The translations under genes and the position numbers were made by a program. Below are positions 26,667 to 37,200 of a stretch of DNA of 64,000 nucleotides, in pieces (within the stretch, counting starts at the first letter, position 1; each line of letters begins with the position of its first letter). This DNA is from Escherichia phage EJP2. The stretch lies in the sequence record OQ411014.1. One strand, given 5' to 3'. The notes beneath the pieces are model-generated. The model was given only the letters and a program-made list of their open reading frames with translations. It made no database searches and was not told the DNA's origin.

Positions 26667-26671
26667 TATTT

Positions 26672-26701
26672 TTGAGATGAATGAAAATTTTGTGATATAA
26701 T
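26672..26701 (+). promoter_or_regulatory. sigma70-like promoter TTGAGA-N18-TATAAT with TGTGA
   Basis: ttgaga 26672-26677, tgtgatataat 26691-26701; fires into an ORF-free region. Confidence 0.55.
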
Positions 26702-26704
26702 GTA

Positions 26705-27175
26705 TAGTACGGATAACACCTATGTTGAATGTCTTTGATAAACAGAACCTGATCCACTCGAAAATGTAGAGGGCAGATGAGTAGAACATTCACTACGAAG
26801 TGCAAATGAAACCCGTCAGTAATAAAGCGTAAGTGCGGTCATACAAACGAGACGTAAGACACACGCGACACGGCAAAGCGGCACTATAAAAGCGATAAGA
26901 AAACATATTCGCTCTTGATAGACTTATGAGGCATACTCACCCAGTTGAAAGGGAGTCTCTTTACGGAGAGACAGCAGTATTTGTTGCTGAATTAGCAAGT
27001 ACTGTAAGCGTGTGAGGAACACGACCGTTGTATGCAGACTGTAGTAGCTGGAAACAGGACAACCCGCCAGCGTTGCTACTTTTATTTGTACGGGAAAGAT
27101 CCGTCCAAAAAGTAGTGAATCTACAAATTCAGATTGGTAAGACTACCAGCGTCAGGATATTCCTGATTTTTTTTC
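26705..27175 (+). ncRNA. candidate structured non-coding RNA (about 470 nt), identity unknown
   Basis: no ORF of 60 aa or more on the plus strand; locally GC-richer; bounded by promoter 26672-26701 and hairpin plus T8 at 27153-27175; internal perfect hairpin gtctct/agagac. Confidence 0.3.
27153..27175 (+). terminator. hairpin cagga/tcctg followed by T8
   Basis: short stem and long T-tract at the end of the ORF-free region. Confidence 0.5.
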
Positions 27176-27311
27176 GGCCCTCCCTTGTGGGGGGATGGAA
27201 TTGGATCAACAAACCTCGTCAAGTATAATATGAATAGTATTAGTACTTAATAATTCAAATGAATTGAGAGATATGAGATGAGCGATAGCGAAATCGAATA
27301 TGTCTCAATTC

Positions 27312-27332
27312 TTGGCTTACGCAGTAAGCCAA
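27312..27332 (+). promoter_or_regulatory. perfect 9-bp hairpin in the 5' leader of the 27355 gene
   Basis: ttggcttac gca gtaagccaa, 10 nt upstream of RBS aggag. Confidence 0.4.
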
Positions 27333-27354
27333 CGAAACATTACAGGAGCTTATC

Positions 27355-29625: not shown

Positions 29626-29633
29626 AATACAAA

Positions 29634-29656
29634 GGACGCACAATGCGTCCTTTTTC
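29634..29656 (+). terminator. hairpin ggacgca/tgcgtcc followed by T5
   Basis: perfect 7-bp stem, 3-nt loop. Confidence 0.75.
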
Positions 29657-29672
29657 TATATGAGGATTTTAT

Positions 29673-30020
29673 ATGAGTGAAACACGTGTAATCTATGGCT
29701 TGATTGCAGAACTAAATTCACCTGTTGATTACGATGAAGAGATTGACCGCATCTCTGACAGTACTCTAAGTCTGAACTACAATGGTACATTAGTGTATAT
29801 GGTTCAAGAAGAACTAGAGTCATATGAATTTGGTTTGCTAATTTCTACTAAGCAATATGGCGATAAAGACAAGTTCCTTGCACTATGCAAAGAAGCAAAT
29901 CTTGATGTCAATCCTGACAGTACTGACATTTTCTGCGTACAATGGTATGACGGGGTAGATTGTCCTTTGGATTGTACCAGCATTGAAGAATATAGAGCGT
30001 ATCGTACCGGTGCTAAATAG
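29673..30020 (+). CDS. hypothetical protein
   Basis: 115-aa ORF with gagg RBS. Confidence 0.45.
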   Translation: MSETRVIYGLIAELNSPVDYDEEIDRISDSTLSLNYNGTLVYMVQEELESYEFGLLISTKQYGDKDKFLALCKEANLDVNPDSTDIFCVQWYDGVDCPLDCTSIEEYRAYRTGAK

Positions 30021-30056
30021 TATTATATCAATACTACTCTATAAGGAGATAATAAA

Positions 30057-30281
30057 ATGCAAGCTAACGATTTGTCTGGTAAAATTGTCACTGAAGGTGA
30101 CGTAGTAGCTTATGGACATGACAATGGAAGTACTTTAGAACTAGGTAAAGTATATAAGATTACGCCTAAGAAAGTTTGGATGTATCCTATTCAGGATGGT
30201 GTAGTACAGTTCCTGTGCAAACAGTGCCGTGATTGGAGGCGAGTGGTAAAGGTTGAGAATTTCTATAATCGAGATAAATGA
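30057..30281 (+). CDS. hypothetical protein
   Basis: 74-aa ORF with aaggag RBS. Confidence 0.4.
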   Translation: MQANDLSGKIVTEGDVVAYGHDNGSTLELGKVYKITPKKVWMYPIQDGVVQFLCKQCRDWRRVVKVENFYNRDK

Positions 30282-30516
30282 GATTTATGAAGAATACCGA
30301 GACGTGTGGCGTAATGCTGATTACAGTATAGTACGCCGCAAACGTCTACTGGAATTATTTGATAAGGGTCTTGTAATTGTGGTGAACACGAAGCATTGTC
30401 CACAACTAAAACAGGATGCGGATTTGAAAAAGTTGCTCAAGGATGGTAAACTAGAACAGTTCAATATCAGAGAGAGTAAGAATTTCAAGAGGACATATCT
30501 AAGAAGGAAGCCATGA
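30253..30516 (+). CDS. possible gene with non-ATG (TTG) start
   Basis: 87-aa ORF with no in-frame ATG; overlaps upstream gene; would otherwise leave about 235 bp non-coding. Confidence 0.3.
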   Translation: MRISIIEINEIYEEYRDVWRNADYSIVRRKRLLELFDKGLVIVVNTKHCPQLKQDADLKKLLKDGKLEQFNIRESKNFKRTYLRRKP

Positions 30517-30517
30517 T

Positions 30518-31072
30518 ATGGCAAAACTACAATTTACATATGCAGCAATGAATTGCGGTAAAAGTACTGCACTATTACAAACAGCTTATAACCTAAGTAA
30601 TATTGGAAAGAAAGTACAATACTACACATCAGCACTTGATGACCGATATGGTTATGGTAAAATTACTTCCAGAATTGGTCTGTCCGAAGAAGCTATGGTC
30701 ATTCCTAAAGATGACTTTTCAGTACTGAATGATATCATTACTGATTACAATGAAGGTACTGAACCTTTTGCAATTTTCGTTGATGAATGTCAGTTCTTGA
30801 ATACAAATCAGATTGACAAATTGGCGTATATCGCTGATAATTGCAATGTAGCCGTATATTGTTATGGACTCAGGACTGATTACAGTGGTGTACTCTTTGA
30901 GGGTTCTAAACGTCTCTTTGAGTTAGCTGATGACTTACATGAGCTAAGTAACAACTGTCAATGTGGTGCTAAGGCTACGATGACAAAGCGACTAAATGAC
31001 AGTACTGAACAAGTACTGATTGGTGATAATGACATGTATCAATGCGTATGCAGAGCGTGTCACAAGAAATAA
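30518..31072 (+). CDS. tdk: thymidine kinase
   Basis: [25 protein letters not shown] parallels E. coli Tdk [25 protein letters not shown]; C-terminal Cys cluster. Confidence 0.85.
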   Translation: [184 protein letters not shown]

Positions 31073-31081
31073 GGACAACAT

Positions 31082-31330
31082 ATGATTAGTTACAAAGACA
31101 TTATCTTTGCAGTACTGAAGCGTTTCAAAAATGAAGTACTTGATGAGTTTGATGACCGTACTCTGTTCAAACTATTAGCGTACTGTACTGCTGCATTTGT
31201 AGTATTCTCTTTTGTACCAGGGTGGGCTATTGTTGTTGCACTTCTGATTGGTTGGGTTACTTACATCGTTGACCGTTCACAAGACGCAAAGACTTGGGCT
31301 GAACATGAAAAAGATGTTGACGAAGAATAA
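31082..31330 (+). CDS. small membrane protein
   Basis: 82 aa with central TM segment. Confidence 0.4.
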   Translation: MISYKDIIFAVLKRFKNEVLDEFDDRTLFKLLAYCTAAFVVFSFVPGWAIVVALLIGWVTYIVDRSQDAKTWAEHEKDVDEE

Positions 31331-31390
31331 AAAATAACATACACTTAAAAGGTGCTACAGATGTAGTGCCTTTTTTCTTAGGAGAGTACT

Positions 31391-31870
31391 ATGTGGTTAT
31401 TTCTATTTTGTTTGATAATGGCATTTGCAACAGTGCAATTGTTCTTTGAGATGGTACATTCTGGTGTATTCGGAGATAGATTGTACTTCAAGGTGAAGTT
31501 TATTGGATTTGATGTAAACACTGAGCGTTCACAGGTGATCCGTACATTAATAATGATGTATCATTCTGGTAAGTACAAAATTGAACTGAACAAGCAGACA
31601 TTATATTTCATCCAAGAAGGCGAGAACAGTACTGAATACATTGTGGAGTGCTTACATGTAAGTGATGTGAATTCATATAAGTACGGACGTTTTGCTGGTA
31701 TTACTAGTACTACAATGGATAACCGAGGCATAATTGATTTCGACACTCGGATGATGTTGTATGATATTGTTGCTGAAGCAAAAGAGCCTGAACCACCAGC
31801 AGATGTTCCAACTTACCAGTACTCAAACTTGAAAGGTTTCTTTGCCCCTAAACAGGATATCGAATTATGA
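31391..31870 (+). CDS. hypothetical protein with N-terminal TM helix
   Basis: 159-aa ORF. Confidence 0.45.
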   Translation: MWLFLFCLIMAFATVQLFFEMVHSGVFGDRLYFKVKFIGFDVNTERSQVIRTLIMMYHSGKYKIELNKQTLYFIQEGENSTEYIVECLHVSDVNSYKYGRFAGITSTTMDNRGIIDFDTRMMLYDIVAEAKEPEPPADVPTYQYSNLKGFFAPKQDIEL

Positions 31871-36172: not shown

Positions 36173-36279
36173 AGTGTTTCACTAGAGCTATGTAGAAAGT
36201 CCAAAAGAGGCTTTGTGCAAACGGAGCCTAATAACTCCTGTTGCTGAAGCTACACAATAATTAGCAAATAGGAGGAATT

Positions 36280-37200
36280 GTGCATAAAGCGATACAAGAA
36301 CTCAAAACTCGTACTAAGGTTGTTCTATTAGTAAGTTTTCTGTTGCTTGCCGCTGCTATTGGATTATATGGTTTATATCAAAATGATCGTACTACATCAT
36401 CGGGTTCAGAAGAATCAGTAGTACAAAATCAAATTCAAAAGCAACCAGTTACAACGTTACCAATGCAAAAGGCAACAGTACTGGAAAGCAGGAAGCAATA
36501 CGTAGTGCAAGCAGGTGATAGTTATTGGATCATCACTAATAAGATGAAACCTAATAACGTTGAACCACTTGAGTATATGGCAGTACTGAAGAAAGTGAAT
36601 AACAATGTTCAGTTACACACTGCTGTACCAATCTACGTGCCGAATGACAATGATTTGATGCATGTTACATTACCAGATGTGGTTGTCAAATTTGACGTAT
36701 ACGACGATATTGTCGTAAACCACATCAAGGAAGCAGAAGGTTCGAAGGAAGCACAGTCTAATAACAAGAGACGTCTTCTGGGTGGTAAAGTAGGTCCGTC
36801 ATTTAGTAAAAATCGTTTCTATCCTTACAAGGACACGAAAGGAAATTATACTATTGGGTACGGTCATTATATTGGTCCCAAAGAGTCCGAAGCGAGAAAG
36901 TATCGTTTTGGGTTGACCGAACGTGAAGCACACAAACTGTTGATTCAGGATATGAAAAAGACTCGTGAAGATTTCATATTGTTGCTGAAGCGTAAAAATG
37001 CAGTGAATCTAAGTGTTGAACAGCAACGTGTTTTATACGAAATGGCATTCAACATGGGCGTTGACAAACTGAGTACATTTGGTAAACTATGGAAAAGTGT
37101 AGAACGTCAAAATGAAAAGAAGTTCAAAAAAGAAATTGAGAACTCATTGTGGTACAGACAAGTAGGCAACCGTGCTGAAATGTTACTGAGTTCTCTATAA
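36280..37200 (+). CDS. endolysin: N-terminal TM/signal-anchor, LysM-like segment, T4-lysozyme-like (GH24) domain
   Basis: GTG start with aggagg RBS; YKDTKGNYTIGYGH parallels T4 lysozyme YKDTEGYYTIGIGH; WYRQVGNRAEM parallels WYNQTPNRAKR; YVVQAGDSYWII is LysM-like. Confidence 0.75.
   Translation: MHKAIQELKTRTKVVLLVSFLLLAAAIGLYGLYQNDRTTSSGSEESVVQNQIQKQPVTTLPMQKATVLESRKQYVVQAGDSYWIITNKMKPNNVEPLEYMAVLKKVNNNVQLHTAVPIYVPNDNDLMHVTLPDVVVKFDVYDDIVVNHIKEAEGSKEAQSNNKRRLLGGKVGPSFSKNRFYPYKDTKGNYTIGYGHYIGPKESEARKYRFGLTEREAHKLLIQDMKKTREDFILLLKRKNAVNLSVEQQRVLYEMAFNMGVDKLSTFGKLWKSVERQNEKKFKKEIENSLWYRQVGNRAEMLLSSL

Follow-up and report, generated by a model that had tools for sequence, protein, structure and literature searches.

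Genomic context of ORF-X

The locus described here lies in a stretch of 64,000 nucleotides (nt) from Escherichia phage EJP2 (sequence record OQ411014.1), which we call the window. EJP2 is a 349-kb Rak2-like jumbo phage (PMC10213699). The subject is ORF-X, an open reading frame (ORF) of 87 codons on the + strand (30253..30516), running from a TTG (30253-30255) to a TGA (30514-30516). Judged from its sequence, ORF-X is a real, conserved small phage gene and a member of the protein family PHROG 20476, whose product is predicted to be a small winged-helix protein. The in-frame stop that precedes ORF-X is a TAA at 30247-30249. There is no ATG in its frame, and the only canonical in-frame starts are the TTG at 30253 and a GTG at 30304 (codon 18). 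A preliminary description of this DNA had reported an ATG-less, TTG-opened frame of the same position and length overlapping the upstream gene, all of which was reproduced. Its remark that ORF-X has only a TTG start is correct insofar as TTG 30253 opens the frame, but GTG 30304 is also canonical and in frame, and it is the start used in GenBank.

The upstream gene (30057..30281, +) encodes a protein of 74 amino acids (aa) of the DUF7205 family (PF23835), 100% identical to EJP02_169, and overlaps ORF-X by 29 nt (30253..30281). On the other side, 1 nt separates the end of ORF-X from the ATG of tdk, the thymidine kinase (TK) gene (30518..31072, +), whose Shine-Dalgarno (SD) sequence AAGGAAG (30504-30510) is inside the last ORF-X codons. 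If ORF-X is left out, 236 nt (30282-30517) remain uncalled, matching the previous estimate of about 235 bp of non-coding DNA. An SD-like GGAGG (30235..30239, +) is located within the upstream gene, in its codons TGG AGG, 13 nt before the TTG. A pair of ATGs close by (30278 and 30287) falls within the first 35 nt of ORF-X but in a frame other than its own. The first of them overlaps the upstream stop codon (ATGA) and opens an out-of-frame mini-ORF of 17 codons (30278..30331, +; TAG at 30329-30331), which has no homology support. As the sole ATG-initiated reading at the locus, it could capture reinitiating ribosomes.

Open frames as long as ORF-X are common in the non-coding frames of the window, and length alone is therefore no evidence for a gene. 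The codon usage favors the ORF-X frame over the two other frames by 26 bits, or 0.30 bit per codon. The gene-like composition attributed to ORF-X is thus right as to the favored frame but weak in degree, compared with 0.61 ± 0.15 bit per codon in 68 confident genes of the window. ORF-X stands above chance because of its homology, namely the PHROG 20476 match and the 38 representatives of its family.

Family membership and predicted fold

The ORF-X protein matched the PHROG 20476 profile with an E-value of 5.8e-15, residues 10-86 aligning to profile positions 29-108 of 110. An exhaustive phmmer search over 1.84 billion cluster representatives returned 38 relatives, nearly all of them about 80-123 aa long, and many of the alignments begin at ORF-X residues 6-12. 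The preliminary description had named a comparison with homologs as a check on the ORF, and by this comparison ORF-X is conserved in its relatives. The proteins of PHROG 20476 are uncharacterised, about 100 aa long, and encoded by large myophages, Rak2-like ones among them; examples are CDS0493 of Erwinia phage Hallingskeid (102 aa), gp196 of Salmonella phage Munch (122 aa), and K4FB28 of Cronobacter phage GAP32 (99 aa). ORF-X has the same predicted fold as these proteins and shares with them the core Y..R..YG..RR..L..L..G....VN.KH..Q.K.DPDLKKLLK.GKIE......K.T..R.K. Among the 17 columns conserved at 70% or more, ORF-X retains 16 (0.94; family mean 0.89), including R28, R29, N45, D55, D57, L61, K63, and the YG that precedes the RR. 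Its mean identity to the family members is 0.39, which is typical for the family. In the members, an ATG start is followed by about 17-30 variable leader residues ahead of the first helix, whereas ORF-X opens with TTG and has about 6-10 residues before the homologous part. By this alignment, ORF-X is N-terminally shortened and lacks the variable first ~20 residues of the family. Members with short leaders exist as well (P0017 and P0020).

AlphaFold2 with the family alignment gave a winged-helix model of ORF-X with a predicted local distance difference test score (pLDDT) of 92. The model contains helices at residues 5-21, 26-37, and 56-63 and strands at 42-44, 67-73, and 79-85. A Foldseek comparison with the PDB also pointed to a winged helix, below significance. 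The named winged-helix DNA-binding domains (MarR, PadR, ArsR, and TFIIIC eWH) do not include ORF-X at the sequence level, and profile searches of Pfam, NCBIfam, PADLOC, and PDB sequences with ORF-X produced no usable match. From the modeled fold, the protein presumably binds a nucleic acid or a protein partner.

Some matches in these searches require comment. An NCBIfam match of ORF-X to colicin Z (E = 0.07) was regarded as noise. The match of a 2001-aa Kelch-repeat protein (P0010, E = 2e-8) is a repeat-amplified false positive, because its Kelch motif AEIYDPxTDTW occurs in about 20 copies and resembles ORF-X residues 8-19. In PADLOC, residues 45-104 of one family member, P0008 from the related locus L017, weakly matched the N-terminal part of SngB, a protein of the Shango defence system (E = 2.8e-4, 18 bits). 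This match was seen in P0008 alone and was absent for the ORF-X protein.

Conservation among EJP2-like assemblies

We compared the window over 29657-31781 (2.1 kb) with 14 EJP2-like loci from Logan and ENA, which are independent of one another and come from separate runs and samples. The upstream protein is recorded in many public assemblies. No near-identical DNA emerged when the locus was compared by megablast with 50,697 phage records, a collection that seems to lack EJP2 itself, and no close relatives appeared in IMG/VR and JGI metagenome contigs scanned with ORF-X and TK. All 14 assemblies are collinear with the window over the compared region with zero indels, and each differs from it at 1-75 positions. 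Both the TTG at 30253 and the GGAGG at 30235-30239 are invariant. Nowhere in the locus is variation lower than in ORF-X, in which 6 sites vary against an expected 18.8 (P = 3e-4). The 107-nt segment running from the GGAGG to codon 26 (30225-30331) has no variable site (7.6 expected, P = 4e-4), and neither does the interval between the two candidate starts, 30253-30303 (3.6 expected, P = 0.026).

These data bear on the suggestion that the missing ATG reflects a sequencing error. A sequencing or assembly indel could have pushed a true ATG (30278 or 30287) out of frame, and the presence of two ATGs in the +1 frame so close to the start of ORF-X is in line with such an event. However, the 107-nt segment is identical and free of indels in assemblies from different runs and samples, and the homology in the family frame already extends 5' of both ATGs. 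EJP2 itself was read on Illumina MiSeq (PMC10213699). A sequencing error is ruled out by this repeated, indel-free arrangement, and a displaced ATG is barely conceivable.

The start codon of ORF-X

Translation of ORF-X probably starts at the TTG (30253..30255, +), the sole canonical in-frame start 5' of the conserved N-terminal helix, as suggested by the family comparison, the structure model, and the SD-like sequence. GenBank places the start at the GTG (30304..30306, +). The resulting EJP02_170 (OQ411014; P0001) is a hypothetical protein of 70 aa, which has the same frame and stop as ORF-X and is identical to it from codon 18 on. A real gene starting at this GTG would encode little beyond the winged-helix core and would be translated by reinitiation 23 nt past the upstream TGA. 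We consider this unlikely, and the GenBank start is probably 17 codons too short. A hidden Markov model (HMM) of 30 family members, from which the query was excluded, scored the 87-aa form at 100.6 bits and the 70-aa form at 93.6 bits, a gain of 7 bits. With the first 17 residues shuffled 200 times, the score was 94.9 ± 1.1 bits and none of the 200 shuffles attained 100.6, while the other two frames reached 94.4 and 93.5 bits. The family homology thus runs 11-12 residues 5' of the GTG in the ORF-X frame. In addition, helix 5-21 has a pLDDT of about 93 and superposes on homologue models from BFVD (75-78 columns, 1.2-1.4 Å). A start at the GTG would delete nearly all of this helix. The invariance of 30253-30303 in the 14 assemblies also speaks against a start at the GTG.

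The SD sequences differ between the two candidate starts in the same direction. The predicted duplex of the GGAGG with the anti-SD sequence has an energy of -9.3 kcal/mol, compared with a median of -5.95 kcal/mol for 68 genes, and is among the strongest in the window. No SD was found at the GTG, where duplex energies are at best -1 to -3 kcal/mol, whereas 65 of the 68 window genes have a recognisable SD-like duplex. Relative to the canonical SD spacing of 4-10 nt for non-AUG starts, the TTG has a strong GGAGG at 13 nt and the GTG has none. The GGAGG is built from TGG AGG, of which AGG makes up only 4.1% of the arginine codons. At the same place, two of the closest relatives have TGGAGT (L021) and TGGTCA (L027). 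The tryptic peptides ISIIEINEIYEEYR (residues 3-16) and DVWR of ORF-X are encoded only if translation starts 5' of the GTG.

A start on a near-cognate codon beside the upstream stop, either ATT 30283 or ATA 30274, would yield a product of 77-80 aa by termination-reinitiation. The ATT begins 1 nt after the upstream stop, and a start adjoining the upstream stop is the usual geometry of coupled reinitiation. Such a product would also retain most of helix 1. In E. coli, however, AUU and AUA are weak initiators, with a few percent of the AUG efficiency or less. There is no SD for either codon (-2.7 to -3.0 kcal/mol), and both would face competition for reinitiating ribosomes from the out-of-frame ATG at 30278 (ATGA). 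We regard a near-cognate start as very unlikely.

The preliminary description also considered that ORF-X might be a frameshift product of the upstream ORF. Since the frames overlap by 29 nt and ORF-X has no ATG, a programmed +1 frameshift could fuse the DUF7205 protein to ORF-X. The overlap (GTT GAG AAT TTC TAT AAT CGA GAT AAA TGA) contains neither an X XXY YYZ heptamer nor a prfB-like CUU UGA, and inspection of 30250-30281 revealed no slippery heptamer or shift-prone stop context. There is also no SD positioned to stimulate a +1 shift and no notable structure (z about 0). In all examined relatives with both genes, these are separate ATG- or GTG-initiated genes in the reversed order. The frameshift, which would have to be +1, is unsupported by these observations and highly improbable. 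Of the three readings put forward in the preliminary description, a TTG-initiated gene is the one best supported by the family homology, the fold, the population conservation, and the strong SD.

In the TTG-initiated reading, ribosomes would initiate at TTG 30253, a site located within the 3' end of the DUF7205 gene. The initiation may be aided by the GGAGG at 30235-30239, by ribosomes terminating 26 nt downstream at the TGA (30279-30281), or by both. Genes of E. coli and T4 are known that start at non-AUG codons with atypical SD spacing, and a UUG with a strong SD can overlap the preceding gene in a way that permits coupling. ORF-X resembles these phage and bacterial genes in its UUG, strong SD, and overlap, but differs in the 13-nt spacer. 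The weak codon and the long spacer suggest a low output of ORF-X. The start codon identity drifts in the tdk gene cluster. The tdk gene starts with ATG in the window (30518), whereas GTG is found at the homologous position in L004 (3188), L021 (2918), and L027 (3501).

Evidence against a translated gene and the existing annotation

Several observations weigh against ORF-X as a gene translated from the TTG. Concerning the start, the 13-nt spacer is long for the window. The + strand contains 11 GGAGG sites, and four of the others are 4-8 nt before likely gene starts, defined as the starts of ORFs of at least 100 codons. A spacer-shortening hairpin is described for T4 gene 38; between the GGAGG and the TTG, no such hairpin is predicted (z about 0). 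No other TTG start was found among about 90 + strand ORFs of the window, in which non-ATG starts are rare, with one clear GTG. Concerning the gene itself, its codon-usage margin is the lowest, the minimum among the 68 confident genes being 0.34 bit per codon. The sole departure among the 17 conserved columns is G25S, at a position where 93% of the other family members have glycine. Of the six changes in the 14 assemblies, 3 are synonymous and 3 non-synonymous, numbers that do not permit a test of the ratio of non-synonymous to synonymous polymorphism (pN/pS), and the low diversity could result from mosaic or patchy recombination rather than selection. Lastly, the stored gene calls of all 14 EJP2-like assemblies (L007-L016 and L023-L026) are empty over the ORF-X interval (locus positions 1726-1961).

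With these points, ORF-X might be viewed as a recently disabled remnant. In such a case, the relocation of the gene discussed below would have removed its own start, the frame would be open only by the short time elapsed, and the interval would be untranslated. The lack of an ATG, the missing family N-terminus, the poor SD spacing, the low codon-usage margin, G25S, and the omission by gene callers all fit this idea. On the other hand, ORF-X keeps 16 of the 17 conserved columns and is about 50% identical to relatives, which is typical of the family. The conserved columns and the typical divergence therefore indicate that the protein has been constrained for essentially all its history. Moreover, the 14 assemblies come from different samples and all share this arrangement, and ORF-X varies less than any other stretch of the locus, contrary to the behavior of a decaying spacer. 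Its stop abuts tdk in normal operon fashion, and its structure model is confident. ORF-X exhibits no sign of a pseudogene such as a broken frame, lost conserved residues, or raised variability. We consider a disabled remnant distinctly unlikely.

The chief result for an intact ORF-X is a correction of the annotation, and no new mechanism is implied. EJP2 was sequenced by Illumina MiSeq and annotated with Glimmer, GeneMarkS, and RAST (PMC10213699). The automatic calls on the 14 related assemblies miss the gene altogether, and the ORF-X protein is missing from large protein collections because the stored calls skip its interval. In the same manner, an exact look-up of the 70-aa GenBank protein in protein collections gave no record, because gene callers pass over ORF-X. 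Small conserved phage genes may drop out of catalogues once a rearrangement leaves them with a weak start codon.

Gene order and relocation

We compared the gene order around tdk in nine related loci (L001, L002, L004, L005, L017, L021, L022, L027, and L028). The order in Hallingskeid, Munch, L004, L017, L022, and L028 is the PHROG 20476 family gene, the DUF7205 gene, a gene of 60-72 aa, and tdk. The family gene lies directly 5' of the DUF7205 gene in L001, L002, L004, L017, L022, and L028, within a cluster extending from DUF5856 to TK. In L005 it is upstream as well, two genes before tdk. The EJP2 lineage has the order DUF7205 gene, family gene (ORF-X), and tdk. From this comparison, ORF-X has been relocated in the EJP2 lineage. 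It now lies 3' of the DUF7205 gene, where it replaces the 60-72-aa gene before tdk. No homologue of the 60-72-aa gene, nor of the gene of about 175 aa that precedes the family gene in relatives, was found anywhere in the window.

The loci L027 and L021 contain the closest relatives of the genes flanking ORF-X. The TK of L027 is the closest outside the EJP2 group (82% identity), and the DUF7205 protein of L021 is the closest of its kind (64%). The PHROG 20476 gene is neither at its usual place nor elsewhere in the DNA available for these two loci. Their lack of the gene therefore indicates that the family gene has been repeatedly gained, lost, or moved within this phage group. ORF-X is a relocated copy of a conserved winged-helix protein gene with a remodelled N-terminus, situated in the nucleotide-metabolism cluster that Rak2-like jumbo phages have. 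It offers, on a small scale, a natural experiment that shows what part of the protein is dispensable.

The junction upstream of ORF-X is altered as well. Homologues of the upstream protein mostly end about 1-3 residues past a conserved 'KV', and that of L027 ends four residues past it. The DUF7205 copy in the window has 8 extra codons (ENFYNRDK, followed by the stop), and this extension begins exactly at the TTG.

A tentative explanation of this arrangement, which we hold to be possible rather than probable, is that ORF-X is chimeric. The family gene would have been transplanted into the 5' end of the gene formerly preceding tdk and would have inherited the position of its start. A deletion of about 7 nt would have degraded the ATG to TTG and also removed the upstream stop and the original SD spacer, and a new GGAGG, containing the rare AGG, would have evolved as compensation. 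An ungapped start-to-start alignment sets window positions 30253-30282 (TTG AGA ATT TCT ATA ATC GAG..., xRISIIE) against the pre-tdk gene of L004 (ATG GAA GAA TCT ATA ATT GAA..., MEESIIE). This alignment pairs the TTG with the ATG of the gene that L004-type relatives have at this position, and 18 of 30 nt are identical (16 of 27 when the start codon is left out). Against all 30-mers, the empirical p-value of this identity is 2e-4 to 7e-4; it is 0.004 when gene starts are the reference, and the family-wise value for nine relatives is 0.034.

The start-to-start DNA comparison with L004-type relatives is solely what rises above background. A profile of the 60-72-aa pre-tdk gene scored 0 bits on the N-terminus of ORF-X, and 384 of 500 shuffles did as well. 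Aligning the junction DNA to eight relatives with gaps allowed gave inconsistent results. ORF-X residues 13-19 (EEYRDVW) also resemble EHYKEVL, the homologous motif of the L027/L021-type gene. Because of this competing likeness, the junction can be placed only to about codons 8-20. The comparison is suggestive of an origin of the first ORF-X codons in the displaced gene. If true, ORF-X would be a worked example of a translation-initiation region rebuilt after gene shuffling in a jumbo phage.

Other features of the window

Scans of the ORF-X neighborhood with Rfam and for tRNAs were negative. Further from the locus, a 306-aa ORF opens at GTG 36280, which follows an AGGAGGA after 3-4 nt (36271-36282). 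Its first ATG is 61 codons downstream and has no SD, and among the genes of the window this ORF is probably the only clear case of initiation at GTG.

A stretch of about 690 nt at 26667-27354 contains no ATG-initiated + strand ORF of at least 60 aa, although it lies amid tightly packed + strand genes. Neither a tRNA nor an Rfam match (E ≤ 0.1) was found in it. A 66-aa TTG-initiated ORF is located within it (27028-27228).

Between the DUF5856 gene and a gene of 115 aa, a perfect 10-bp hairpin (AAAGGACGCA...TGCGTCCTTT) is found at 29631-29653. With runs of T on both sides, it looks like a bidirectional terminator.
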